NCBI GenBank assembly: GCA_037133255.1
Contig: JBAXON010000003.1
Location: 1 to 37,735 of the forward strand
Reading direction: 5' to 3'
Source of the DNA: Deltaproteobacteria bacterium
Lineage (GTDB): Bacteria; Desulfobacterota; Syntrophia; Syntrophales; Smithellaceae
DNA: 37,735 nucleotides
The position numbers were made by a program, and so were the translations under genes. Shown piece after piece: positions 1 through 33,758 of this stretch. Under the pieces are notes generated by a model, which saw nothing but the letters and a program-made list of their open reading frames with translations, ran no database searches and was not told where the DNA came from. Within the stretch, counting starts at the first letter, position 1; each line of letters opens with the position of its first letter.

Positions 1-88
1 TACTTTTTTTGTATCCGAGGCGGGAATAGATTTTCGCGTAAGGGGGATTAAGAAATATGTTTCCCAAAATAATTAGAGAATCGGGCAT
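1..88 (-). CDS. 5' part of a CDS running off the window (MPDSLIILGNIFLNPPYAKIYSRLGYKKS...), possibly a methionine synthase activation-domain-like protein
   Basis: Manually translated open frame from ATG at 88 to the window edge, directly downstream of the receiver gene. The IYxRLGY start resembles that family, which is a weak basis. Confidence 0.45.
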   Translation of the reverse strand, partial: MPDSLIILGNIFLNPPYAKIYSRLGYKKS

Positions 89-131
89 ATAAGGTTCAAC
101 TTTTCTTAATGGGTTTTGGAAGACTTCAACT

Positions 132-548
132 TCAAAACTTTATTTTGTCGGGGCGTTTTTTCCAGCGCTTCAGCCGGTCAAAAGCTTCCGCTACCAAGTT
201 CAGCAACATATCCATATCCAGTGGTTTTTCAAAGTAATCATCAAACCCGGCTTCGCGGCATTCTTCTATTTCAAAAAGGGGCGCCCATCCGGTCATGGCG
301 TAAATTATAGCAATCTGTTTTGTCTCGCGGATTTGACGACACAGTTCAATTCCGTTCATGCCGAAAAGTTTTAAATCCAGAAAAATAACATCAATATCGT
401 CGAGGTTTAAAATAACATCCTGCAGAATTTTCAGCGCGTCTTTTCCGCCTTCAGCGGTAATCACTTCATAGCCCGCCTCGATAAAAACAGAGCAAAATAA
501 TTCACGAACAGAAACATCATCATCAACTACCAGTATTTTCCCTTTCAA
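132..548 (-). CDS. Single-domain response regulator (CheY-like receiver)
   Basis: ILVVDDD acidic pocket, phospho-acceptor FLDLKL, MTG and EKP motifs; no output domain. Confidence 0.9.
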   Translation of the reverse strand: MKGKILVVDDDVSVRELFCSVFIEAGYEVITAEGGKDALKILQDVILNLDDIDVIFLDLKLFGMNGIELCRQIRETKQIAIIYAMTGWAPLFEIEECREAGFDDYFEKPLDMDMLLNLVAEAFDRLKRWKKRPDKIKF

Positions 549-570
549 GGTTCCATCCTTTCGGTTAATG

Positions 571-1665
571 TTAGTTTATTAATTGCTCCAGTTTTTTTAA
601 TGTCTTGCTGCCCATTTCGTCTGTGCCGACGAGCTTATTGCCTTCGGCATAAATATCCTGCGTCCGGAAACCATCTTTTAAAACTTCCGCCACGGCTTTT
701 TCCACTAAGTTTGCCTCATCGGGCATGGCCAGCGTATAGCGCAACATCAGTCCTACTGATAAAATTGTTGCCAGCGGATTGGCTATATTTTTCCCGGCTA
801 TGTCCGGCGCGGAGCCGTGTATCGGTTCAAAAAGCGCCTTATCTTTGCCCAGAGATGCCGATGGAAGCATGCCGATGGAGCCGGTCAGCATGGCCGCTTC
901 ATCGCTTAATATATCGCCGAATAAATTGGTTGTGACAATTACATCGAACTGCTTGGGATTTCGGATAAGCTGCATCGCGCAATTATCAACGTACATGTGC
1001 TTTAAAGTCACCTCCGGATAATTCCTGCCGACTTCCGTAACCACGGTGCGCCACAGTTCAGTTGATTCCAGAACATTGGCTTTGTCCACCGAAAGAAGAT
1101 TTTTCTTTCTGCCGCGGGCAATTTCAAAAGCGGAAGTAGCGATCCTGACGATTTCATCTTCGGTATAGACCATTGTGTTTATACCTTTGCGCTTGCCGTC
1201 CTTCTCTTTTGTTACCCCGCGTGGCACACCGAAATAAACATCGCCGGTCAGTTCGCGAACAATCATGATATCGATGCCCTGCACGACACTTTTTTTGAGT
1301 GGAGAGGCATCCAAAAGCTCGTCAAATACTGTGACGGGCCGCAAATTAGCATAAAGGCCTAATTTTTCCCGCAGGCCCAGAAGCGCCCTCTCTGGCCGCA
1401 AACTGTAATCCAGATCTTCCCATTTCGGGCCGCCCACAGCGCCCAAAAGAACAGCATCACTTTGAAGTGCCAGATCAAGACTTTGCTGCGGCAGCGGAAC
1501 ACCAAAACGATCGTAGGCGCTACCACCTACATATCCTTCCGATAAGGATATGTTAATTTTCCTTTTATCGGAAATCAATTTTAAAACCTTTAATGCCTCG
1601 TTCATGATTTCCGGGCCGACACCGTCACCGGCAAAAACGGCTATTTTAAAATTATCCTTTTTCAT
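571..1665 (-). CDS. leuB: 3-isopropylmalate dehydrogenase
   Basis: [27 protein letters not shown] and [12 protein letters not shown] motifs. Start moved to ATG 1665, which has a GGAG RBS; the longer ORF begins inside a repeat element. Confidence 0.97.
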
Positions 1666-1681
1666 TGTTGAAACTCCAATT

Positions 1682-1817
1682 TTAATGAGACCCAAGCTTC
1701 AGAAACAAAGTGCCCTGAAGCTTGTAGGTCGAATTATCCCGCGAAGCGGAGGGTATGATACCCAGTAGCTTGCTACAAAATATTTTTAAAACTTTATTTA
1801 GGGTTCATACCCGCGAT
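1682..1817 (+). repeat. Structured dispersed repeat, copy 1 (long form; tail overlaps the leuD 3' end)
   Basis: TTAATGA-GACC-[CAAGCTTCAG/CTGAAGCTTG]-TA-GGTC-GAATTATCC, then CGCGAAGCGGAGGGTATGA...ATACCCGCGAT, shared with 7843-7950. Confidence 0.85.
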
Positions 1818-2309
1818 GTTTACTCGTTTCCCGGCAAGATGCTTCATCAAACCTCCATCGGCAATTAATTGTTCCATAAATGGCGGAATGGGATTAATGC
1901 GAAATGTTTTATTCTTTGAGACCAGAGTTATAGTTCCCGCGACACTGTCCACAGTTATTTCTTCGCCTTCCTGTACTGCTTCATACAATTCTTGAGATTC
2001 AAAGATGGGCAGACCCATGTTAAAGGCGTTGCGATAAAAAATGCGGGCAAAGCTTTTGGCTATCACGCAGGAAATGCCCGCCGCCTTGATGGCAATGGGC
2101 GCGTGCTCGCGTGAAGACCCGCAGCCGAAGTTTTCTCCTCCCAAAATAATGTCACCTGCCTTAATCTTCGTGACAAATTGGGGATCAGCATCTTCCATAC
2201 AATGGGCGGCAAGTTCCTGCGGATCGGAGGTTGTTAAGTAGCGCGCCGGAATGATGGCATCGGTATCAATGTTATTTCCAAATTTCCAGACTTTTCCTTG
2301 AAATATCAT
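1794..2309 (-). CDS. leuD: 3-isopropylmalate dehydratase small subunit
   Basis: NIDTDAIIPARYL, NFGCGSSREHA and SFARIFYRNAFN motifs; located in the leu cluster. Confidence 0.96.
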   Translation of the reverse strand: MIFQGKVWKFGNNIDTDAIIPARYLTTSDPQELAAHCMEDADPQFVTKIKAGDIILGGENFGCGSSREHAPIAIKAAGISCVIAKSFARIFYRNAFNMGLPIFESQELYEAVQEGEEITVDSVAGTITLVSKNKTFRINPIPPFMEQLIADGGLMKHLAGKRVNIAGMNPK

Positions 2310-2320
2310 TTTTTAAATCC

Positions 2321-2400
2321 TTAATGAAACTCCAATCGCGAAAGCGAAGCGCATCGGGATTGGTTAGTTGAATTATCCAACGTGCGAAGCAACGTTGGGT
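2321..2400 (+). repeat. Structured dispersed repeat, copy 2
   Basis: TTAATGA-AACT-[CCAATCGCGA/TCGGGATTGG]-TT-AGTT-GAATTATCC, then hairpin CCAACGT-GCGAAGC-A-ACGTTGG. Confidence 0.85.
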
Positions 2401-2410
2401 TGGTACCTTA

Positions 2411-3670
2411 TTACAGTTCCTCAGGCGATGCAATCCTGCCCAACACAGCGGATGCTGCCGCGACCGCCGGGCTTGCCAGATAGACTTCGCTTTTGGGATG
2501 ACCCATGCGGCCGACAAAGTTGCGGTTTGTTGTGGCAATTGCTTTTTCACCTTCCGCCAGAATCCCCAAATGTCCGCCCAGACAGGCGCCGCATGATGGC
2601 GGGCTGATGACCGCGCCGGCATTAAGAAATATTTCGAGCAATCCTTCCTGCAGGGCTTGCTTGTAAATAAATGGCGTTGCCGGCACAACGATTAATCTTA
2701 CACCGGATGCGGCTTTATGCTTTTTAAAAATTTGCGCCGCGATTCTTAAATCTTCAATCCGACCGTTGGTGCACGAGCCGATAAGAGACTGATCAATTTT
2801 CACAATGCCTGCATGACTTATACCTTTGACATTGGATGGCAAATGAGGGAAGGCCACCTGCGGTTCAAGCTTGCTTGCGTCAATTTCAATAATACCCTCA
2901 TAGACAGCATTCGCATCGGATTCATAAAATTTATAAGGACGCTTTGCCCGGCCTTCGACGTAATCTTTAGTAATTGCGTCAGGTGCGAAAATGCCGTTTT
3001 TAGCCCCGGCTTCAATGGCCATATTCGCCATGGAAAGCCTGTCGGCCATAGGCAAGTTGCTGATAGTATCACCGGTAAATTCCATTGCTTTGTGTAGCGC
3101 ACCATCAACACCGATTCGCCCGATGATGTTTAAGATCAAATCTTTTCCCGAAACCCATTTGGGCATTTTACCGGTAATGATAAATTTCATCGACTGCGGC
3201 ACTTTGAACCAGAGCTCTCCTGTCAGCATAACCGCGGCAAGATCCGTGCTGCCAACGCCTGTAGCAAAAGCGCCTAAGGCGCCGTAAGTGCAGGTGTGGC
3301 TATCCGCACCGATTATCAGATCACCGGGAAGGACAATGCCGCGCTCCGGCAGCAGGGCGTGTTCAATCCCCACCTGCCCGCCCTCAAAAAAATGAGTTAT
3401 CTGCTGCTCAACGGCGAACTGCCGAATAAACTTGCATTGCTGGGCGGAGCTAATGTCTTTATTCGGCGTGAAATGATCGAGAACTAAAGCAACCTTGTCT
3501 TTATCAAAGACTTTCAGGCCTCCCGCTTTTCTAAATTCTTTGATTGCTATTGGCGATGTAATATCGTTACCTAAAGCTATATCCACTTTGGCGTTGATCA
3601 ACTGGCCAGGCGATATTTCTTTAAGGCCGGCATGAGCCATCAAAATCTTTTCGGTGATAGGATATCCCAC
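2411..3670 (-). CDS. leuC: 3-isopropylmalate dehydratase large subunit (LeuC type 2/HacA family)
   Basis: [29 protein letters not shown] (4Fe-4S Cys ligands) and [10 protein letters not shown] motifs. Confidence 0.96.
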
Positions 3671-3722
3671 TATTATACTCCTTGTTCCAAGGGTGAAATT
3701 GTTCTTATAATGTTTTTAATGT

Positions 3723-5267
3723 TTATTCAACCCTAACCTTTTTGGCGTTATCTTTCAAAAATTCCAGCCGGTTGAGGGCATTGATATAAGCTTTTGCTGA
3801 AGCAACAATAACATCGGGATGAGCGCCGCGCCCGGCAACGGGATGACCGTTATATTTAAGCTGGACTGTTACTTCGCCCTGTGCGTCAGAGCCGCCGGTG
3901 ATGGCGTTCACCGCGTATTTCAGTAGCGGATAATTGGTTTTGGTAATGCTGCGGATCGCCTCAAATGTCGCATCCACCGGGCCGTTGCCGAAACCGGCCG
4001 CGCGCACCAGATCTTTTCCCACCTGCATTTCCATTGTCGCCGTAGGAATGGCCACATTGCCGCTGACCACATTCAGATAAACCAGGTTATATTTATCCTC
4101 AACGCGGTACACTTCTTCATACAGAATGGCTTCCAGATCTTCATCATAAATGTCCTTCTTAATATCGGCAAGCGTTTTAACCCTGGCGGCAACCTTGCTT
4201 ACCTGCTCATCACTGAGGATGTAACCCATTTTTTTCAAGTGATGAGAAATGGCGTTGCGCCCGGAGTGCTTACCAAGAACGATATGCGTATCGCTGATGC
4301 CGACGGATTGTGGTGTCATAATCTCATAGGTACTTTTTTCCTTAATCATGCCGTCCTGGTGAATGCCTGATTCATGAGCAAAGGCGTTCGCGCCGACGAT
4401 TGCCTTGTTGGGCTGCACCTGTATGCCTGTAATCTGGCTCAACTGGCGCGATGTTTTATAAATCTGATCGGTCTTGATTTTTGTATAGAGGCCGTACATG
4501 TCTTTGCGCGTCTGCAAAGCCATGACAACCTCTTCCATCGCCGTGTTTCCGGCTCGTTCGCCGATGCCGTTGATGGTGCATTCCACCTGCCTTGCCCCGT
4601 TTCGAATCGCGGCCAGAGAATTGGCCACCGCCAGCCCCAGATCGTTATGACAATGGACGGAGATAATCGTGTCGCCCATGTTTTTGACATGGGTAAAAAG
4701 ATACGCAATCAGCCTGCCAAATTCTTCCGGGATGGTGTAGCCGACGGTATCGGGGATGTTGACGGTGCAAGCTCCCGCGTCGATTACTGCCGATACCATT
4801 TCCACCAGATAATCTTTATCTGAACGAGTGGCATCCATCGGCGAAAATTCTACATTTCCCGTATGAGAGCAGGCATACTTAACCGCGGCTACCGCTTCTT
4901 GAAGCACCTGCTCCCGACTTTTTTTGAGCTGATACTTCAAATGAATATCCGATGAGGAGATGAATGTGTGAATACGCGGATAGGCGGCATGTTTGATGGC
5001 CTGCCAGGCGCGGTCAATGTCTCCTTTATTGGCACGGGCAAGGCCTGCCACCTGCGATTTTTTAACCTCTCTGGCGATTTGCTTTACCGCGTCAAAATCT
5101 CCATCGGAAGCGATGGGAAATCCCGCCTCAATAATATCAACACCAAGTTTTTCGAGTTGCCTCGCGAGAATCAACTTTTCTTCCGTGTTCATGCTGGAAC
5201 CGGGCGATTGTTCGCCGTCTCTCAGCGTCGTATCGAAAATATATACCCGATTTTTTTCCTTCTTCAT
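3723..5267 (-). CDS. leuA: 2-isopropylmalate synthase
   Basis: [33 protein letters not shown] motifs and C-terminal regulatory domain (GNGPVDA). Confidence 0.97.
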
Positions 5268-5345
5268 ATAAACGCCTCATTTTTTAATTTTGCCAAATAA
5301 AAAGTGCCGTCTTGATTTTACTGCCGTCTTTGTAATGCAATGGTC

Positions 5346-6317
5346 TTACTTGAAAAGTAGGACAAATTTTTCAAAAATGTCTTTATTAAAGTGCTCCATC
5401 ATTTCTTCTTTCATTATCTTTAACGCCTCAAAAGGTTCAAGTTTTATTTTATACGGTCTTTTCGAAATTAAAGCATCAAAGACATCGGCAACCGAACAGA
5501 TGCGGCCGTAAATATGAATTTCCTCCCCCCGCATCTTTTGCGGATATCCCATGCCATTTGCCCGCTCGTGGTGCTGCAAAACAATCAACCGGCTCTCTTC
5601 ATTAATTTGATTCGTTTCATTAAGGAGCTTAAACCCCAAATCGGGATGTTTGCGCATCTCGTTCATCTCCTCATCGGTAAGTTTTCCCGGTTTGTTAATA
5701 ATTGCTTCGTCTATATAGACCTTGCCTAAATCGTGCAGGAAAAACCCAGCGCCCAGGGCATGCATGTCGTGATTACCTGATTTGGGAAAAAGTGTTTTAG
5801 CCAGAGAAACAGCCAGAACGCCGACATTTACAGAATGCACATAAGTATTATAGTCATGGGTTGTCAGGTTCATCAGATAGTGATTTGTGGCATTATCGTC
5901 AAGAATTAAATCAACAACGCCGACTATGCCTTCCTTAAATTGTCCGATACTTTTTTCATCAGGATTATCAAATAGTTTGCTCACCATATTTACCGAATGC
6001 CAATGTACCATCTTTGCTTTTGTCTTTGGCGACATTTTTTTGTCGGCAATGACTTCTCTAAAGTGTTCAGGAACAATACCTGCTTTCTCAGAAAAGTCCT
6101 TTTCCGGCTGAACTAATTCCCGAAGAATATCAGTTGCGGCAATACCTTTCTCCACGTCAATATTGACATCGGTAATTCCAAAGTTAATGATTTTTGAAAT
6201 CTGCTTGTTTGTTGTTATAGTAAAACTATTGCGCAAAAAGGGATGGGCGCGCCAGGCATGAGGCAGGCTTACATACATACCTACCTTGATTTCTTTAGCT
6301 TTAATGGCTTTTATCAT
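5346..6317 (-). CDS. HD-GYP domain protein (putative c-di-GMP phosphodiesterase) with DUF3391-like N-terminus
   Basis: HSVNV, HDLGK, HHERANGMGYP and ADVFDALISKRPYK motifs; N-terminal IKVGMYV...W..HPF. Confidence 0.9.
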   Translation of the reverse strand: MIKAIKAKEIKVGMYVSLPHAWRAHPFLRNSFTITTNKQISKIINFGITDVNIDVEKGIAATDILRELVQPEKDFSEKAGIVPEHFREVIADKKMSPKTKAKMVHWHSVNMVSKLFDNPDEKSIGQFKEGIVGVVDLILDDNATNHYLMNLTTHDYNTYVHSVNVGVLAVSLAKTLFPKSGNHDMHALGAGFFLHDLGKVYIDEAIINKPGKLTDEEMNEMRKHPDLGFKLLNETNQINEESRLIVLQHHERANGMGYPQKMRGEEIHIYGRICSVADVFDALISKRPYKIKLEPFEALKIMKEEMMEHFNKDIFEKFVLLFK

Positions 6318-6455
6318 TATAGTTTTTCCATACTGAAAATTACTTAAAAACTAGCACAATAGATGCGCTTCCGCAAAGAATAAATCAAAAGAACAAGTCA
6401 AAGCTATTTTTCTGAAAATCATGGAATGTTTACAAATATTTATATGGAAACATCC

Positions 6456-6484
6456 TTGCCAGAGTTATAAAGTTTTGTTATGCT
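6456..6484 (+). promoter_or_regulatory. Sigma70-type promoter for paaK
   Basis: TTGCCA (6456-6461), 17-bp spacer, TATGCT (6479-6484), with extended -10 TG. Confidence 0.55.
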
Positions 6485-6543
6485 CACTCATAATCAATAA
6501 CAAATAGTTGCTGGCATCAGTAAAAAGCAAGGGAGGCGCTGCC

Positions 6544-7842
6544 ATGATTTATAATGAAGAATATGAGACATTGCCCCGCGAAGCCCTAAGGGCGCTGCAA
6601 GTCAAAAGACTACAACAGGTTTTGGAGCGCGTGTACCATTCGGTAGGATTTTATAAGAAATCGCTTGATGCCGCTAAAATCAAACCCCACGAGATAAAAG
6701 CAATTGCCGATATGGGTAAACTTCCTTTTATTACCAGGCAGAATTTGCGAGATAATTATCCCTTCGGCTTATTTGCTGTACCGATGAGCAACATTGTCCG
6801 GCTGCATGCTTCTTCCGGCACCAGTGGAAGATCCACAGTGTTTGGTTATACCAGGCGTGACATTGAAACGTGGTCAGAACTTATGGCTCGCAGTCTTGCT
6901 GCTGCAGGGATAACAAAAAATGACATTATTCATAATGCTTTTGAATACGGGTTGTTCACCGGTGGATTGGGGCTGCATTACGGCGCGGAAAAAATAGGGG
7001 CAAGCGTCATCCCCATGTCTGGCGGCAATTCCAAAAGGCAAATTATGATCCTGCAGGATTTCGGGCCGACGGCTATTTGCTGCACACCATCTTACGCTTT
7101 GCACCTGGCTGAAGAAGGCAAGGCTATGGGTGTTGATATGAAATCGCTGAAGCTGCGCGTGGGTATTTTTGGAGCCGAACCATGGAACAAAGCGATGAGC
7201 GACCAAATTGAAAATGCTTTCGGGATAACCGCGCTTAATCTTTTCGGCCTTTCGGAAGTTATCGGGCCGGGCATGGCGATGGAATGCCTGGAAGGGCGCA
7301 ACGGCATGCACATTTTTGAAGATCATTTCATTGTGGAAACAATTAATCCGCAAACAGGTGAAGCACTAAAGGAAGGTGAAGAGGGCGAGCTGGTTTTTAC
7401 CTCACTGACTAAAGAAGCCTTCCCGCTGATTCGCTACCGTTCCGGCGATGTATCGCGGCTTATTACAGAGCCCTGCCGCTGCGGCCGCACCCATATCAAG
7501 ATGGAAAGAGTCCTGAAAAGAAGTGACGATATGCTGATTATCCGTGGTGTGAATATCTTCCCTTCACAAATCGAGGCAATACTGGTTGAAATCGAAGGCC
7601 TTGAACCTCAGTATCAGTTAATTGTTGATAAAGCCGGAGCTCTGGACACACTGGAGCTGCATGTGGAAGTCAGCGACAAGATATTTAGTGATTCCGGCGG
7701 TGTTAAAGAATTACAAAAAATCGAAAAGAGAATCCTCAAGGACATGAAAGATTATCTGGGCATCGCACCCAATGTAAAGCTTGTTGAACCCAGCACATTG
7801 AAAAAAACCGATGCCAGAATTATTGATAAACGAATTATTTAA
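6544..7842 (+). CDS. paaK: Phenylacetate-CoA ligase family protein
   Basis: HASSGTSG P-loop, [24 protein letters not shown] and [17 protein letters not shown] motifs; ATG 6544 follows GGGAGG. Confidence 0.92.
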
Positions 7843-7950
7843 TTAGTGAAATTCCAATTCCGCTTTGCTAGCGGAATTGGCCAATTGAACAATCCCGCGT
7901 AGCGGAGGGTATGAGATTTAGCAGCTTATTTTGGATTTTATACCCGCGAT
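7843..7950 (+). repeat. Structured dispersed repeat, copy 3 (long form)
   Basis: TTAGTGA-AATT-[CCAATTCCGC/GCGGAATTGG]-CC-AATT-GAACAATCC, then CGCGTAGCGGAGGGTATGA...ATACCCGCGAT. Confidence 0.85.
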
Positions 7951-7974
7951 TATTTATAAAGGAGGAGTTACCCG

Positions 7975-8406
7975 ATGAAGGTTGAACAAATATCCGTATT
8001 TTTAGAAAACAAACCCGGCTCTTTGGAGCACGCGACACGCGTCCTGCGCGATTCCAGCATTAACATTCGAACTCTGTCACTTGCGGAAACAGTCGATTTC
8101 GGCATTTTGCGCCTGATTGTCAACGATGTGGAAAAGGCCAACAAGGTGCTCAAAGACGCAGGCTTCCGCGTCAGCAAAACAATTGTCGTCGCGGTGGAAG
8201 TCCCCGACAAACCGGGCGGATTGCACAGCATTATGGAAGTTCTATCCAAAGAGGCCATCAACGTGGAATATCTTTATGCCTTTGTAGAAAAAAGCGGCCA
8301 AAACGCGGTAATCATCTTCCGCTTTGATGCTCCGGAAAAAGCCATAGAAGTGTTACTCGCGCATAAGTTCACGGTAGTGCCGGGGGCACAGTTGTATGAA
8401 TTTTAG
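7975..8406 (+). CDS. Tandem ACT-domain protein (commonly adjacent to paaK in anaerobes)
   Basis: [11 protein letters not shown] and [13 protein letters not shown] repeats; AGGAGG RBS. Confidence 0.9.
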
Positions 8407-8640
8407 TGAGACTCGAACTTCAAAAGCATAGCGAATTGAAGTTCGTTAGTCGAACTATCCCCGTAGCGCAGCGAAGAGGGATGTGAGAACCATTTTCAGA
8501 AGCGTAACGCACTGAAACCTGCTGGTGGAACTATCCCCGAAGCGAAGTACCCTGAAGGGCATCTGCGACAAATTGAAGTTCGTTAGTCGAATTATCCAGC
8601 ATTAAGAGGCGTATACTACCAAGCAGCTTGTCGTGGAATA
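8403..8640 (+). repeat. Cluster of structured repeats: copy 4 (8403-8482), degenerate copy 5 (~8483-8563), partial copy 6 (8571-8597) and tail
   Basis: TTAGTGA-GACT-[CGAACTTCAA/TTGAAGTTCG]-TT-AGTC-GAACTATCC; 8571-8597 matches 8434-8460 at 26 of 27 nt. Confidence 0.8.
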
Positions 8641-8928
8641 TGTTTCCAAAACTTGCTTTGAAGTCTGTACATTTTATTTTCGCAACTTGTAAAACTATAA
8701 TTCTTAACTATTGTTCAACTGGGTGTTAATACAATAGTCCTCAATACTCACAATAATATTTTCATTGGAAATTCAGTAAAGATTGTGGTTTATATATCAA
8801 AGTGTAGAAGTTTTCGGAAGGATGATTTGCTTAACTGGATGTTTCAAAGGCATAAAAGAGCAAATGCTTGAGGCAAAAATGATTGTTGGCGAAAAGACCG
8901 TGAGGCTTATCTTTTAAGGAGGAGGGGA

Positions 8929-10215
8929 ATGAATTACGACGTTTTTGTAAGTTATTGTTCAGAAGATAGAAAAATTGCCGATGCACTTGTTCATCATTTG
9001 GAGGGAAAAGAAATCAGATGCTGGATAGATCATAGAGATTTATTGCCGGGATTTAACTGGAGAGATGGCATAATAGAAGCACTTGAGGGCAATCCCGGAA
9101 TCGCTATGGTATTGCTCTTCTCTTCGGCATCAAACAAATCCAGACAGGTTATAAAAGAAATTTCCATGGCCGATGAGGAGAATATTTTAGTGATCCCTGT
9201 CCGAATTGAAAATATACTGCCGGAGGGCGCAATCAAGCTTGAACTTCAAGGAAGACACTGGCTGGATGCTTTTGAGGGAAAAGAAGACCGCATAGAAAAA
9301 GCTGCTGAACGTATAAATCAAACACTAACACGTTATAGCGAGAAAATATCTCTAAAACAGGATTCAGTTCCTAAATCAAAAGCTTCACGGCCTGCGGAAA
9401 AAGAATTAGCACCAGCGACACATGATGCAGTGGCACCAGTGAATACAGTCTCCGCCAGCAATGCGCCTGAAAATGTTCCTAAAATAAAGCCCATCAAACC
9501 GTCTGTAGATTCATCTCCTTCAGCATTTAGCCAGCTTCATGAAAAAATAGGCAGGAAATGGCAAAATGCCAATAAGAAGGCCATATTCATTGTCGCTTCG
9601 GTGATTTTTGTCATAATTGTAGTTGCCGATGTATTTATTTTTATTCCTGCGGCAAAAGACCAGTTATTACTGCTGAAAGGTAAGTTGCCGTTTTTAAGAG
9701 AGTCAACCGAAGCCATAAGCGAGAATACGGAAGCTGTAAGCGAGAATACAGAGGCCGAACAAGCGGCGGAGCAAAAAGCCGAGATCAAACCCAATGTTGC
9801 GTCTCTCAGGGCCAGTGAAGTTGATTTTATATTTGTCGGCATACGAATAGAGGGAAGCGACGTCACCTTGACAATCAGGATACGCAATAATTCTAAGAAG
9901 GAGAAGAGTGTTGCCCTGTATGATATTACCAAGAAATCATGGGTGAGATCCAAATTGATCGACAAGATGGGGAAGGGCTACGAAGTTGGTGGCGTGAATT
10001 TTTCCAAAGGCGGGAAGAAGATTACAAGTAAAGATGCCGGAACCAAGGGAGTTGTCATAAAACCGCATGAGGCTGTCAGCGCTTCTCTCCATTTCAAGAA
10101 AGTCGGTAATGACGTTACTTTGATCAACCTTCATCCGTTTATATACACGAGTGGTTTGATTGGGAGTAATTATACTGAGCATGACCTGCCATTGATTTTT
10201 GGTGTTACTCAATGA
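8929..10215 (+). CDS. TIR-domain protein with one transmembrane helix and a C-terminal extracytoplasmic beta-rich domain
   Basis: YDVFVSY box 1, CWID..D...G, SxxS..VIKEI (Glu at the catalytic position), VIPVRIE; hydrophobic segment AIFIVASVIFVIIVVADVFIFIPAA; strong AGGAGG RBS. Confidence 0.88.
   Translation: MNYDVFVSYCSEDRKIADALVHHLEGKEIRCWIDHRDLLPGFNWRDGIIEALEGNPGIAMVLLFSSASNKSRQVIKEISMADEENILVIPVRIENILPEGAIKLELQGRHWLDAFEGKEDRIEKAAERINQTLTRYSEKISLKQDSVPKSKASRPAEKELAPATHDAVAPVNTVSASNAPENVPKIKPIKPSVDSSPSAFSQLHEKIGRKWQNANKKAIFIVASVIFVIIVVADVFIFIPAAKDQLLLLKGKLPFLRESTEAISENTEAVSENTEAEQAAEQKAEIKPNVASLRASEVDFIFVGIRIEGSDVTLTIRIRNNSKKEKSVALYDITKKSWVRSKLIDKMGKGYEVGGVNFSKGGKKITSKDAGTKGVVIKPHEAVSASLHFKKVGNDVTLINLHPFIYTSGLIGSNYTEHDLPLIFGVTQ
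9709..9750 (+). repeat. 21-bp tandem duplication encoding EAISENT-EAVSENT
   Basis: GAAGCCATAAGCGAGAATACG / GAAGCTGTAAGCGAGAATACA. Confidence 0.8.
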
Positions 10216-29870: not shown

Positions 29871-30197
29871 TCATTTTTTGCCAATCGTGCTCTTGGCCTG
29901 TGCCAGTTTATCTTTGTCCAGATAATATTTGCCGCTGCCGGTTTTTATAACTATTTTGTCGGTAAGAAGGATGTGCAGCGCTTTGGGGCGAATATTACCC
30001 GCACCCACGCGAAAAATATTTTTCCGTTCTTCCTGAAGCTTGATCGCCTGGGCGGCGCTGAAGGCTCTAGCCTCTTCCATTTCGGCGATAATCTTAAAGC
30101 ACATCCGCCGTACGCCCAAGCCTCCGACATACATGGCTAAAACGACAAAGACAATAAAAGCGATAAACAGCAGAAATATTTGTAAATAGACCGGCAT
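29871..30197 (-). CDS. Hypothetical membrane-anchored protein
   Basis: N-terminal TM helix and basic C-terminus; co-oriented with the acyl-CoA dehydrogenase operon. Confidence 0.7.
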   Translation of the reverse strand: MPVYLQIFLLFIAFIVFVVLAMYVGGLGVRRMCFKIIAEMEEARAFSAAQAIKLQEERKNIFRVGAGNIRPKALHILLTDKIVIKTGSGKYYLDKDKLAQAKSTIGKK

Positions 30198-30251
30198 AAT
30201 ATTTAACTTCCCTTATTCATTTCTCCATTGATAGAGGCAACAGACCATCTG

Positions 30252-30292
30252 AGAACAAGGGGTTGCAACCCCTTGTTCTACCCCTTGTTCTA
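30252..30292. repeat. REP-like perfect 28-bp palindrome plus 12-bp tandem duplication of its right arm
   Basis: AGAACAAGGGGTTGCAACCCCTTGTTCT at 30252-30279; CCCCTTGTTCTA at 30269-30280 and 30281-30292. Confidence 0.9.
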
Positions 30293-30295
30293 TTT

Positions 30296-33151
30296 TCATT
30301 GCCCCTCCACAATGGCGATTTCTTCTTCGGTCAGGCTATACAACTCATAAACCAGTTTGTCAATTTGCCGATCGGTCGCGTCAATCTGGCGCTGGATCAA
30401 GGTTTGTTCGTGGCTGGTTTTGGCTTCCGGCAGTTGTTTGTGCAAGGCAAGCATCTGATCGACTAGTTGAACCATGTTTTCATGAATTTTCTTTTCAGCA
30501 GGTTTGTTGAAGTCGATAGTGCGGATGGGCAGACGTTCCACGTAAATTACTTTGACCTCCGCAAAAACTTTCCCGACCATTTGCGGATTATGTATTTCAA
30601 ATATTTTCTGCAATAAACGTGAGTTCAGTAGACCAAGGATGTACTGATATGATAACTTGTTTTGTTCACTTCTGAATTTGATTACATGACATGAATTTAC
30701 ACAAACTGATGAATTCAAATCTATGCAGGAAAAAAGTTTATCACTCGTTCTGCGCATTAATATCTTTGGACTTGTAAACAAATCCTCAGACCTCGGCGCA
30801 GCTAACCAAGGTCCATAATTTACAGCTTCCCTTGATTTTTTAAAATGGTAGCGCTTTACGTTCTCACCTCGATATAATAGTTTCCACCCATCTACAGCTT
30901 CATCTACCTTTGTATAAGGACGCTCTATCAAAGTGTTTTCTGTCTGCGGCGGGTTTCCTTTACCTTTTTCATAAAGCTTGACACCCGCTTTTACAATCGC
31001 CAATGATCCAAGATTCGGTTGCAGAATTGTTTTCAATAAGATATTTTTGTCTTCGATACTGTTTCTATAATCAATCTTAAAAAGACTATCTTCCAAGAAC
31101 TCAGAATTTTTTCTAGAATACTCTTTGCCTTCAACGCGCATTTTTAAATTGGCATGTAAACTAGGTTTTGAGTTTCGTAAAATAAAGACCACTGTATCAA
31201 CAATGGCGGCTTTAAATGCCCATCCAGTCTGCCAAATCGATTCAATAGATTTAGAAGTAAGTAACCATTTTCTAAAGTCGTTACAACTTTCAATATCGCA
31301 AAATGTATTAGGTACAATCAACGACATAAACCCTTCATGCCTTAATAATTGTGAGCCTTTTACAATAAAGTAACAATAGCTATCAGGAAACTTTTGAGCT
31401 TGTTGATAATGAATTTGAAGATAATCTTGATCAGTACGTGAAAAAGTTGCACCATAAGGTGGATTCCCAATCACTGCATCAAAACCGCCCGCTTTGAATA
31501 TTTCCGGAAACTCGGCCTGCCAGTCAAAGACGTTGACACGCTGCGCTTCTTCCGTGTCCAGCAGATTCATTTGTTTGCCGTTGTAGAAATCCGAGCCGAT
31601 GAGCGAATTGCCGCACTTGATGTTGCCGCCCAGATTCGGCAACGCCCGTTCGGAAAAGAGTTTGCGCTGCTGATTTAAACTTTCTCCTGTTTCGCCTTCC
31701 AGCACTTTGAGCAAAAGCGAGAGTTTGGTGACTTCCACGGCCTGACTGTCGATATCTACGCCGTAAATGTTGTTGAGCAAAATCCGTTTGCGTTCGGCGG
31801 TGGTTAGATGCCACGCGCCGCCTTGTCCAGAGAAAATGGCTGGCCTCTTCTCCCGTGCGTGTTTTTCCGGGTTATTTTCCGTGTAATAATTCAAATGCCA
31901 GTCGAGCAAATACTGATAAGCTCCCAGTAAAAAAGAACCCGACCCGCAGGCCGGATCGAGAATCCGCAGGTTCTCCGCCTTCTTCGGGGTTTTGCCATCG
32001 AGGAGCTTGCCCACGGTGTTTTTAACGATATACTCCACGATATAAGTGGGTGTGTAAAAGACGCCGCCAGCCTTTTTGACTTCGGGCTTGTCCTCCACAA
32101 CGGCGCGGTGATCGCTACTCAGGCGGATGACCTTACCCAGGAATTGCTCATAGACCTGCCCCAGAATATCTGCGGGCAGAACCGCAAACTCGTAGGGCGA
32201 ATCAGGATAGTAAAGCGTTTTCAGAATATCCTTGAGCGGCTTGTCGTCTATAACCAGCGTAGTGGTCAGAATATCTGGCGGTTCCGTTTCGTCTTTTTCC
32301 GTGCGGAAGTGGAACAGGCCGGAGTTATAGCGGTCATCAGCCTTGTAAAAGAGTTCTTGCAGACGGCCATACGAATTGTTGCCGTTGCAGATGCCGCGCA
32401 GGCTGCCGTAGTCTTCAATGCCCCGGTCTTCGGCGATGCGCAAAAAGATAACCCGGTCGATGATGCGCTGGACGGAATCGTTGAGTTCACGCACGCTCAG
32501 GCTGTTACGCAGGGCGATATTTCTGGCAAGTATGTCACGCCAGCTTTCAATTTCCGCCAGAAAGGCGCTGTCCACTTCAGCAGTGCCTCGTTTGCCCTTG
32601 TTGGATTCGGCATATTTGTCAAACGAACCTTTAAGGATGGCTTCTTTGGAAAAGATAGCGGCAATTTCATCCCATTTTTCGGCATACTGCCTGAAGGTAT
32701 AGTATTTGATGCGGGCATTGTCGGCCTTGTCGTTTTGATCAGGCTTAAAGCGGCAATCATAAACAGCCAGCTCCTCAAAATCAGTGACGATGGAAAGTGG
32801 CAATTTGGCCGACCAAGCGTAACGGCGCACCTGAAAGGCGGCGGCCGGGGCATCTTTGATATAGACGGATGGCTTTTTGGCTTCAACAAAAAACTTGCGC
32901 GCACCTCCGATGCGGAAGGAATAGTCCGGCGCTTTGGTGATACCGCTGACTTTTACCGCGTCTTCATGGATGACGTCTTTATAGGCTTCGGCATTGCCCG
33001 CAGTATTGTTGACGTCCCAGCCCAACGCCTCAAAGAAGGGATCGATAAACTCGTGGCGCGTCTGGGTTTCATTGTATGCACCGGATTTATAAGCGTCAAG
33101 GTTGCGGCCGAATCGTTCAATCAGCTCAAGAATAATTTGCGGTGCAGGCAT
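30296..33151 (-). CDS. Type IIG (Eco57I/TaqI-like) fused restriction endonuclease-N6-adenine methyltransferase
   Basis: PDY...VEAKK nuclease motif, GVFYTP, ILDPACGSGSFL (motif I), IGNPPY (motif IV), TaqI-C-like TRD and helical tail IDKLVYELY.L. Confidence 0.9.
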   Translation of the reverse strand: MPAPQIILELIERFGRNLDAYKSGAYNETQTRHEFIDPFFEALGWDVNNTAGNAEAYKDVIHEDAVKVSGITKAPDYSFRIGGARKFFVEAKKPSVYIKDAPAAAFQVRRYAWSAKLPLSIVTDFEELAVYDCRFKPDQNDKADNARIKYYTFRQYAEKWDEIAAIFSKEAILKGSFDKYAESNKGKRGTAEVDSAFLAEIESWRDILARNIALRNSLSVRELNDSVQRIIDRVIFLRIAEDRGIEDYGSLRGICNGNNSYGRLQELFYKADDRYNSGLFHFRTEKDETEPPDILTTTLVIDDKPLKDILKTLYYPDSPYEFAVLPADILGQVYEQFLGKVIRLSSDHRAVVEDKPEVKKAGGVFYTPTYIVEYIVKNTVGKLLDGKTPKKAENLRILDPACGSGSFLLGAYQYLLDWHLNYYTENNPEKHAREKRPAIFSGQGGAWHLTTAERKRILLNNIYGVDIDSQAVEVTKLSLLLKVLEGETGESLNQQRKLFSERALPNLGGNIKCGNSLIGSDFYNGKQMNLLDTEEAQRVNVFDWQAEFPEIFKAGGFDAVIGNPPYGATFSRTDQDYLQIHYQQAQKFPDSYCYFIVKGSQLLRHEGFMSLIVPNTFCDIESCNDFRKWLLTSKSIESIWQTGWAFKAAIVDTVVFILRNSKPSLHANLKMRVEGKEYSRKNSEFLEDSLFKIDYRNSIEDKNILLKTILQPNLGSLAIVKAGVKLYEKGKGNPPQTENTLIERPYTKVDEAVDGWKLLYRGENVKRYHFKKSREAVNYGPWLAAPRSEDLFTSPKILMRRTSDKLFSCIDLNSSVCVNSCHVIKFRSEQNKLSYQYILGLLNSRLLQKIFEIHNPQMVGKVFAEVKVIYVERLPIRTIDFNKPAEKKIHENMVQLVDQMLALHKQLPEAKTSHEQTLIQRQIDATDRQIDKLVYELYSLTEEEIAIVEGQ

Positions 33152-33156
33152 ATTGA

Positions 33157-33690
33157 TTAATTCTCCTTATTCATTTCTTCGTAGATAGAGTCGATAGATT
33201 TTCTCAGAACAAGGTGTTGTGCTAGAATAAGGGGTTGCAACCCCTTGTTCTCTGGTAGGCCGTGCTTTTCCCTATTGTTCATAATATATTCTATGGTATT
33301 TCGCAATTGTTCATCTGACTGCACCACCCATTTGTTAAACTTTTGTGCCCAAAGGTGAAATGGATTGTGCGAGACCTTGCCCAAATATTCTTTATAGAGT
33401 TGCGAAGATTTCCCCTTAATCTGCCTCACCATATCACTGACTTTGTTCTCTTCACATTCAATCACCATGTGGACATGATCCCGACAAATATTATAGGCAT
33501 AGACCGTGTATTTTTTATCAAGAACGATTCCGGCGATTATTTCTGTAACTTTCCGTTCAGCCTTTTCATCCAGTCGGATTCCCGCCTCTTTTTTAATATG
33601 ATAATCAATCATCCGTTGCGAGACTCTTGAATTGTGGGTAACCCATGTTACATGATAGATGCCAGCCGGGGAATATGCCTGTTTATCCAT
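33157..33690 (-). CDS. Y1/HUH transposase (IS200/RAYT-like)
   Basis: YHVTW, DHVHMVI (HUH), LWAQKF and EYIMNN (catalytic Tyr) motifs; flanked by palindromic repeats. Confidence 0.88.
   Translation of the reverse strand: MDKQAYSPAGIYHVTWVTHNSRVSQRMIDYHIKKEAGIRLDEKAERKVTEIIAGIVLDKKYTVYAYNICRDHVHMVIECEENKVSDMVRQIKGKSSQLYKEYLGKVSHNPFHLWAQKFNKWVVQSDEQLRNTIEYIMNNREKHGLPENKGLQPLILAQHLVLRKSIDSIYEEMNKEN
33206..33251. repeat. REP-like palindrome and half-site inside the transposase 3' end
   Basis: AGAATAAGGGGTTGCAACCCCTTGTTCT at 33224-33251 (one mismatch); half-site AGAACAAGGTGTTG at 33206-33219. Confidence 0.88.
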
Positions 33691-33706: not shown

Positions 33707-33758
33707 TCGATTCATAGGAGAACAAGGGGTTGCAACCCCTTGTTCTCCTATGAATCGA
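33707..33758. repeat. 52-bp perfect palindrome containing the REP-like core
   Basis: TCGATTCATAGGAGAACAAGGGGTTG|CAACCCCTTGTTCTCCTATGAATCGA. Confidence 0.92.

Follow-up and report, generated by a model that had tools for sequence, protein, structure and literature searches.

What kind of sequence recurs between the genes of a bacterial leu operon, and again in a second operon nearby, as a hairpin that keeps its pairing while the letters of its stems change? The DNA that raises this question (hereafter the window) is a stretch of 37,735 nucleotides (nt) from contig JBAXON010000003.1 of assembly GCA_037133255.1, a member of the Smithellaceae; it represents contig C3 of a 3.21-Mb genome in 402 contigs with 44.7% G+C, and its LeuC is 82–84% identical to LeuC of Smithella genomes. 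The first-pass annotation, made from the letters of the window alone, had listed four clean copies of a structured repeat at 1682, 2321, 7843, and 8403, all on the plus strand, and had proposed a structure selected at the DNA level, such as a non-autonomous element mobilised by an HUH transposase. The four copies were confirmed in position, strand, and stem sequence, including the single mismatch of copy 2. A search with a covariance model (filters off) returned five units in the window, all on the plus strand, at 8404, 1683, 2322, 7844, and 8481, the last being a degenerate fifth copy. Our analysis suggests, with a probability of about 0.62, that this repeat is a mobile DNA element, non-autonomous and with a selected hairpin as its working part.

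The pairing was examined in the whole genome. The 3' motif of the repeat, GAAYWATCC, occurs 339 times on the two strands; in 134 cases, 12 or more of the 14 stem pairs of the originally described frame can form in the sequence upstream. The bulge measures 2 nt in 122 of those 134 sites, and the main loop lengths are 12 nt (81 sites), 33 nt (18), 3 nt (11), and 7 nt (7). To avoid circularity, units were also picked blind to structure, using only the 5' motif, a 42-nt spacing, and the 3' motif. This pattern gave 80 matches in the genome (79 distinct), and 62 distinct units on contig loci formed the covariation alignment. The results showed that 92.8% of 992 stem cells were paired, compared with 69.5% after shuffling, and that none of 500 shuffles was as high. 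Both sides had changed in 15 of the 16 pairs, double changes were present in 253 cells compared with 72.5 expected, and pairing fell to 22–38% when the partners were slid along the alignment. When the basal helix described below was counted in, 94.0% of cells were paired and both-side changes were seen in 17 of 20 pairs. A second alignment of 80 loci from many genomes, which was fitted to the model, gave 92.5% pairing and covariation in 16 of 16 pairs. The covariation claimed for the four copies is therefore borne out, and these results support the conclusion that the hairpin structure is under selection.

A covariance model built from the 62-unit alignment, as had been recommended, found at least 147 units in this genome, with 150 of 1355 candidates scored, indicating that the repeat is not restricted to a few copies. 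Two other genomes contained 152 units (G017, of another genus) and 116 units (G018). Compensatory changes could be followed as stepwise series within subfamilies. In addition, 19 of the G017 units share 82–100% identity with units of the present genome, and since stem variants thus recur in another genus, part of the covariation lies between old subfamilies.

The basic unit is about 57 nt long. It is built, in order, from a basal helix (T-W-R/Y-W-A), a T-A pair, a tandem G.A/A.G mismatch, a 4-bp stem, a 2-nt bulge, and a 10-bp stem, and its loop contains a C(R-N-A)G mini-hairpin. Columns 1–4 of the alignment (T, W, R, T) are paired with columns 51–54, and the basal helix itself covaries, with A-T 45 times and T-A 14 times at one pair, and A-T 31 times and G-C 30 times at another. 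These basal pairs enclose the invariant tandem mismatch, in which G-A stands opposite G-A. The fixed frame around the stems that had been noted in the first-pass annotation is not single-stranded, because its bases pair in the basal helix. A folding prediction for single-stranded DNA (ssDNA) gave the same structure with z-scores of −3.4 to −5.9, and the opposite strand folded equally well in the same DNA energy model.

Several features mark one strand of the unit. GNA-type triloops, which are stable in DNA, had been reported for the copies in the window; they were found again, and the class widens to R-N-A, which is present in 75 of 79 units (GAA 30, GTA 14, AAA 12, GCA 12, ATA 4, and ACA 3). 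The 2-nt bulge is invariably on the 3' side, and purine–purine mismatches in the stems outnumber pyrimidine–pyrimidine mismatches by 75 to 12, most of them coming from two subfamilies. The triloop, the bulge, and the mismatch excess together distinguish one strand from the other. G.T pairs (23) and A.C pairs (21) are about equally frequent in the stems; there is thus no wobble excess of the RNA type, unlike what would be expected under selection on RNA. In agreement with the earlier description, 75 of 78 units continue into a second hairpin, which comprises at least 3 bp and sets in at the TCC of the 3' motif. The units take three forms, namely, single units, head-to-tail arrays, and the left part of a composite of 170–200 nt, the right end of which is conserved and is not inverted relative to the left.

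A 21-nt micro-hairpin accompanies these units. It occurs 42 times in the genome, including positions 8548–8569 of the window. Its copies lie in both orientations and at several positions, and they were found in unit loops, within the second hairpin, and inside another repeat. We observed it only inside the loops of other hairpins and, once, nested within another copy of itself. It looks too small to hold two transposon ends. The mobile GC clusters of yeast mitochondria are likewise short hairpin modules, found inserted in AT-rich spacers as well as inside each other, and the 21-nt insert inside loops may be compared with them, although kingdom and sequence differ and no relationship is implied.

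The mobility of the repeat was assessed at matching sites in relatives, a comparison that had been named beforehand. The comparison genomes G001 and G002 belong to the same genus, with 84–88% identity in the flanking genes. The leuB/leuD site of copy 1 is empty in both genomes and in five of five more distant Smithella loci. The leuD/leuC site of copy 2 is empty in G002 and in two further loci (L001 and L002) and is filled otherwise elsewhere, with a different unit carrying the 21-nt loop insert in G001 and with related units in L003, L004, and L005. The site of copy 3, between a PaaK-like gene and an ACT gene, is empty in both comparison genomes, whereas the site of copy 4, after the ACT gene, is occupied in G001 but not in G002. 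A further composite on contig C8 is absent from both. Moreover, an unrelated repeat with inverted ends, about 115 nt in length, hosts the unit at two positions; at one of them, about 10 copies of this host repeat are filled and about 45 are empty. These filled and empty orthologous and nested sites bear out the claim that the repeat is mobile. In contigs from lake and freshwater metagenomes, read depth peaks and contigs break at the repeats. Contigs of X2 join 7844/7850 to 7958 (depth 3–4, 30-nt sides, 92% likeness, so that they may come from relatives), and a related strain in run X6 diverges at 8402; these contigs give weak signs of empty alleles in relatives.

The host repeat of about 115 nt (L091:1540–1690, on contig C9, and about 55 other places, none of them in the window) has inverted ends and a long internal hairpin and is, by appearance, a classical MITE (miniature inverted-repeat transposable element).

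Within the family, the covariance model found the element in 26 of 36 genomes, many of which hold at least 92 matches each; in other families of the order, 1 of 24 genomes matched, weakly. A wider scan, in which one genome per species was searched for the motifs and then with the covariance model, yielded strong matches (50–76 bits) in Bacteroidota bins (Chitinophagaceae, Rikenellaceae, Salinivirgaceae, Lentimicrobiaceae, and other Bacteroidales), in Omnitrophota, and in one Phascolarctobacterium bin. The whole-genome counts were 59 in Chitinophagaceae, 20 in Rikenellaceae, 15 in Salinivirgaceae, 6 in Omnitrophota, and 1 in a fifth genome. The Chitinophagaceae genome (G061, with megabase contigs) carries 47 nearly identical copies of an element of about 170 nt, which share their start and end motif with the composites of the Smithellaceae genome. 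The near-identity of these copies suggests that they arose in a recent burst. Among 120 genomes drawn at random from the same phylum, none matched at E 1e-6. The sporadic occurrence outside the Smithellaceae points to horizontal arrival followed by local bursts. In viral loci, 21 model matches were found in 8 of 29, placed between head and structural genes; at one of these loci (L318), the units have genes of a major head protein and other virion proteins as neighbours. The family has probably spread horizontally on phages.

Some of the G061 copies (L328, L329, L353, L365, and L367) also carry a G+C-rich palindromic insert of about 20–25 nt in a third hairpin, a second kind of nested mini-insert.

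The ends of the element bear on how it could move. The 47 copies of G061 do not end in inverted repeats, and the conserved 5' flank does not recur on their 3' side. Both these copies and the composites of the present genome start with the long hairpin unit and end with a different conserved end that carries a small hairpin. Such asymmetric, hairpin-bearing ends fit a single-strand (HUH-like) mechanism. In the mechanism that we propose, a trans-acting enzyme would recognise the folded strand together with a few invariant bases; because the enzyme would read the fold and these bases, the stems may vary as long as pairing is kept. Insertion of the element, which has no inverted-repeat ends, would take place in short AT-rich spacers, in many cases immediately after a TAA or TAG stop or before a ribosome-binding site of the other strand, and the element would spread horizontally, probably on phages. 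We infer that ssDNA is the substrate and that the 5' triplet is derived from the target and read by pairing.

The position of the units at gene boundaries is relevant to the 5' triplet. In the phage-like locus L318, the stop codon of the upstream gene coincides exactly with the start of the unit in four of four cases, and at other phage-like loci, the 5' end of the unit lies 13–25 nt from the start of a gene on the opposite strand. Among 119 units of the present genome, the first triplet is the stop codon of a long frame in 8; in 9 others, a stop is no more than 30 nt away; in 18, an antisense start is found at a distance of at most 40 nt; and 84 show neither arrangement. The T-W-R triplet is already present at the junction of the empty sites of copies 1 and 3. 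This suggests that T-W-R is a target sequence read by pairing with the Y-W-A of the element, whereas one nested site in the 115-nt repeat is without a T-W-R triplet, which speaks against T-W-R as the target.

Whether the structure works as DNA or as RNA can be approached through its orientation toward genes. With flanking reading frames called crudely, 104 units of the present genome were divided into 22 sense to both neighbours, 24 antisense to both, 21 mixed, 21 with a frame on one side, and 16 within called frames; the 47 units of G061 included 11 sense to both, 14 antisense to both, and 18 mixed. Since sense and antisense counts are similar in both genomes, a role that requires transcription of one strand is unlikely, and the proposal of a DNA-level action rather than a sense RNA gains support. 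The mapping of orientation against replication gave a divided result. In G061, the majority strand of each contig accounts for 43 of 54 units (p 0.0006), a bias that could reflect replication; raw 20-kb GC skew agrees with the unit strand at 21 of 37 loci, and a skew balanced for coding strand agrees at 25 of 36, the top strand tending to lie on the G-rich strand, this measure having been chosen after the raw one failed. In the present genome, contig GC skew follows gene strand (r 0.78), so that the figure for the element (36/41) is confounded by gene strand. The strand bias seen in G061 has no counterpart in G017 or G018.

These data were weighed against other explanations of the repeat. It could be a miniature IS200/IS605-type element, that is, a palindrome-associated transposable element (PATE), or a repetitive extragenic palindromic (REP)-like sequence, moved as ssDNA on the lagging-strand template by a Y1 HUH transposase or a REP-associated tyrosine transposase (RAYT). 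The asymmetric ends with subterminal hairpins and no inverted terminal repeats, the head-to-tail arrays, the short conserved sequence directly 5' of the element, the pairing of the 5' triplet with an internal triplet, the R-N-A triloops, the presence of Y1 genes in this genome, and the orientation bias of G061, including its balanced skew, are all consistent with this view. A linked Y1/HUH gene, however, was looked for and not found. The genome has two Y1 genes, and no TnpB was found. The only HUH gene of the window, a Y1 (IS200-like) transposase gene at 33157–33690 on the minus strand (PF01797, E 3.3e-14), is flanked by its own 28-nt palindrome (33224–33251 and 33719–33746, with a further copy at 30252–30279), which has five copies in the genome, and the second Y1 gene is flanked by different inverted repeats. 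Y1 occurs in 19 of the 26 family genomes with the element and in 7 of the 10 without it, so that no co-occurrence is seen. The seven carriers without a PF01797 match include assemblies of 6 and 10 contigs with at least 92 and at least 89 element matches, and three Y1-free carriers have 89–92 scored matches each at a completeness of 95–98%. Y1 genes are present in three Bacteroidota carriers, and no Y1 match was obtained in the Omnitrophota carrier; at none of 11 Y1 loci in G061, G062, and G065 do the ends of the element bracket the Y1 gene. Together with a raw skew in agreement at only 21 of 37 loci and the lack of an orientation pattern in G017 and G018, these results make mobilisation by Y1 or RAYT unlikely. 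An HUH enzyme is the leading analogy for the mobiliser, but we put it at well under even odds. Of the original proposal of an HUH-mobilised non-autonomous element, mobility and the asymmetric, hairpin-bearing ends are retained, and the link to a Y1/HUH gene is not.

A cut-and-paste MITE of a DDE transposon moving as double-stranded DNA, with covariation arising from subfamily history or from intrastrand template switching, would find some support in the possible 8-nt direct repeat at copy 3, in a nested site readable as a 3–5-nt duplication, in a right tail that by eye holds a weak inverted copy of the 5' motif of the unit, and in the occurrence of a separate classical MITE with inverted ends in the same genome. 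It is nevertheless very improbable, because the ends are not inverted repeats, as the 47 G061 copies demonstrate, and because no regular duplication or repeated flank of fixed length is found. Furthermore, the arms vary freely, whereas an inverted repeat bound by a transposase should be conserved; template switching would not keep an invariant G.A mismatch, a one-sided bulge, and R-N-A loops on one strand; and within 0.8 Mb of G061, the surroundings of the units contain no multi-copy transposase. An RNA-level intercistronic element, acting in mRNA stability, RNase III-like processing, or translation and copied passively, could account for units in the short spacers of operons and phage modules, for 5' ends that abut stops or ribosome-binding sites, for the GGAG that copy 1 supplies before leuB, and for a long irregular hairpin that forms from either strand; tandem G.A pairs are also common in RNA. 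With sense and antisense units in similar number, however, half would yield complementary RNA without the conserved motifs, G.U-type pairs (23) show no excess over A.C (21), no Rfam match appears even at E up to 10, and presence or absence in essential operons shows that the genes work without the element, so this reading is improbable as well, though less remote than a DDE-type MITE. The attC sites of integrons, which are formed by a folded single strand and recombined by a tyrosine recombinase, have a similar architecture, with ends that pair, a central part that does not, extrahelical bases, and a variable top, and GTTGAAY fits GTTRRRY in the A-U outer-stem class (25 of 62 units). In most units, however, GTC stands in place of GTT, and RYYYAAC is not matched on the 5' side. 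Rather than forming co-oriented cassette arrays, the units are scattered through housekeeping operons in both orientations, and no integron integrase scores above the NCBIfam cut-off (best 84 bits versus 265). We give an attC-like site next to no likelihood.

A rather more radical form of the mobile-element reading would be a hairpin transposon of a new kind, without Y1 or another recognisable transposase of its own, that picks its insertion point by Y-W-A/T-W-R pairing. We consider this doubtful, somewhat below mobilisation by Y1 or RAYT. If it were so, an unrecognised enzyme would act on a folded single strand in the form of a long hairpin that carries the tandem G.A and the R-N-A loops. Subfamilies would home to TAA/TAG stop codons and lodge behind genes without harm, the 21-nt micro-hairpin would be the smallest item carried by this machinery, and phages would carry the system between phyla.

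Several observations weigh against a mobile element with a selected hairpin. The recurrence of stem variants in another genus could reflect a sequence-specific function or selection rather than free drift, and a benefit to the host, rather than targeting, could explain why the first triplet fits stop codons. No mobilising gene was found, nor any copy with an open reading frame between its two ends. Copy 3 is bordered by the possible 8-nt direct repeat, of which the empty site of G002 has one copy, and one nested site fits a duplicated TAA while the other does not. In G017, the 2.09-Mb contig shows no orientation switch (42 plus and 54 minus, p 0.94), and G018 is without contig bias by eye, with counts of 9/11, 18/18, 7/10, and 18/21 per contig. 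Finally, most of the genomes are metagenome bins, and a single match such as that of G064 may be contamination.

The search for a mobiliser of this element was extended beyond Y1. No Y2 (IS91-type) transposase was detected in five Y1-free carriers, but the control genomes were equally silent, which deprives this negative of weight. A search for an autonomous copy, in which left and right ends were paired at distances of 0.45–3.5 kb, gave four candidates, which is the chance level for the short right-end pattern. Clustered units of G017 surround ordinary genes, and the only multi-copy frames near units in 0.8 Mb of G061 encode histidine kinases.

Two side observations concern Y1 genes. In G061, contigs C2, C3, C7, and C8 (for example, L373, L375, L377, and L379) contain 12 copies of a frame of about 180–230 amino acids with a weak, partial Y1_Tnp match (E 1e-8 to 3e-4); 11 of the 12 lie on the minus strand, and their flanks are without the hairpin unit. 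In the window, an Eco57I-like restriction–modification gene (30296–33151, minus strand) lies between copies of the 28-nt palindrome, with the Y1 gene on one side and, on the other, a 73-nt remnant (30193–30265) that is 77% identical to the 3' end of Y1. This defence gene may have been moved or captured by the Y1 element.

The repeat was also compared with named families. Rfam gave no match at gathering score in the window and none overlapping a copy at E up to 10 (1600–8800), and the sole match in three further loci (L364, L336, and L318) at E up to 1 was a tRNA; this agrees with the initial failure to assign the repeat to a named family. A blastn search with two composites against plasmid and phage record collections gave no match, and a word search of the literature, with no comparison made with ISfinder or Dfam sequences, found no description of such repeats in Smithella. 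Three RNA-based candidates were rejected. For a tRNA-like origin of the GTCGAA...ATCC part, ARAGORN found no tRNA-like gene in 1–10000. For a hammerhead or kink-turn reading of UGA...GAA, the 5' bases differ from the ribozyme core and Rfam gave no match, and in the case of the kink-turn, the bases needed for the second helix pair elsewhere.

The closest known systems are miniature IS200/IS605 elements and REP sequences with their bacterial interspersed mosaic elements (BIMEs), and a defining test failed for each. Like PATEs and miniature IS200/IS605 elements, the repeat is small and non-coding, has unlike ends that each carry a hairpin, lacks inverted terminal repeats, and has a short conserved sequence at its left junction. 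The pairing of a flanking with an internal triplet recalls the guide-to-cleavage-site pairing of IS608 (PMC3201880), and single-strand transposition of IS200/IS605-type elements by Y1 HUH enzymes (PMC6006769) served as the comparison. In contrast to those elements, no Y1 gene shares the ends of the repeat or co-occurs with it, TnpB is lacking, an orientation bias is seen in only one of the three genomes tested, and the left hairpin is much longer, with an invariant tandem G.A. REP/BIME sequences, which were compared in connection with RAYT transposases (PMC2817692), resemble the repeat in numbering more than 100 extragenic palindromic copies per genome and in forming mosaic clusters, inside operons and on either strand. 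However, the clusters described here run head-to-tail, whereas those of REP/BIME alternate in orientation; the unit comprises 57 nt and a second hairpin rather than a palindrome of 20–40 nt; the RAYT-like gene is flanked by the five-copy 28-nt palindrome and not by the abundant repeat; and the family crosses phyla and sits in phage-like contigs.

Correia, ERIC, and Nezha-type elements are bacterial MITEs of DDE transposons. Like them, the repeat is non-autonomous, 100–200 nt long, intergenic, foldable, and patchy among relatives, and it can supply stop codons or ribosome-binding sites; unlike them, it has no terminal inverted repeats and no consistent target duplication, and its arms covary. 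Bacterial MITEs are reviewed in PMC10969869. The attC sites of integrons are folded single-strand sites with paired ends, bulged bases, and a variable top, in which structure rather than sequence is conserved. The repeat has a similar architecture and differs in that the attC core motifs are not present, cassette arrays are lacking, and no integron integrase exceeds the cut-off.

Small structured repeats are common, though a mobilising enzyme is known for only a few of them. This family offers an unusually clean test case, with a strict structural signature, a recent burst of near-identical copies in one genome, and a range of at least three phyla and phage-like contigs despite the lack of a Y1 transposase that co-occurs with it. 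Identification of its mobiliser would reveal either a wider reach of HUH enzymes or another route of single-strand or structure-guided insertion. The repeats also have practical effects, in that they break metagenome assemblies, with contigs ending at them, and change the ends of genes and their ribosome-binding sites, as the cases of leuD and leuB show. They could further mark horizontal exchange among the Smithellaceae, the Bacteroidota, and their phages.

The copies in the window occupy gene boundaries of two operons. Pfam matches agree with the gene context given in the first-pass annotation, with two sites antisense to the leu operon and two in the sense direction of the PaaK/ACT operon. 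The leu operon is on the minus strand and comprises leuB (571–1665), leuD (1794–2309), leuC (2411–3670), and leuA; the second operon, on the plus strand, comprises the PaaK-like gene (6508–7842) and the ACT-pair gene (7975–8406). Composite copy 1 (1668–1818, plus strand, 76.6 bits) lies between leuB and leuD, antisense to both, and consists of a truncated first unit (1668–1681), a full unit (1682–1739), a second hairpin (1736–1753), and a tail that terminates in a conserved ATACCCGYGAT-type end. The GGAG preceding leuB comes from this copy, which has also replaced the end of leuD (1794–1830); compared with relatives, the leuD frame enters the right end of the element about 11 codons before its stop. 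Copy 2 (2321–2407, plus strand, 76.6 bits), between leuD and leuC and again antisense, comprises a unit at 2321–2378 and a second hairpin at 2375–2399.

In the second operon, the repeats are read in the sense direction. Composite copy 3 (7843–7950, plus strand, 45.2 bits) lies between the PaaK-like and ACT genes and contains a unit with a 7-nt loop (7843–7895), a second hairpin, and a tail that reaches to about 7950. A head-to-tail array (8403–8672, plus strand) follows 3' of the ACT gene. It begins with the unit at 8404–8460, the first triplet of which, TAG, is the stop codon of the ACT gene, and continues with a second hairpin, the degenerate unit (8481–8536), a hairpin with the 21-nt loop insert (about 8548–8569), the 3' half of a unit (8570–8597), and a degenerate tail. 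Directly downstream of the array, positions 8929–10215 encode a protein of 428 amino acids with an N-terminal TIR domain (PF13676), which may be the product of a defence gene.

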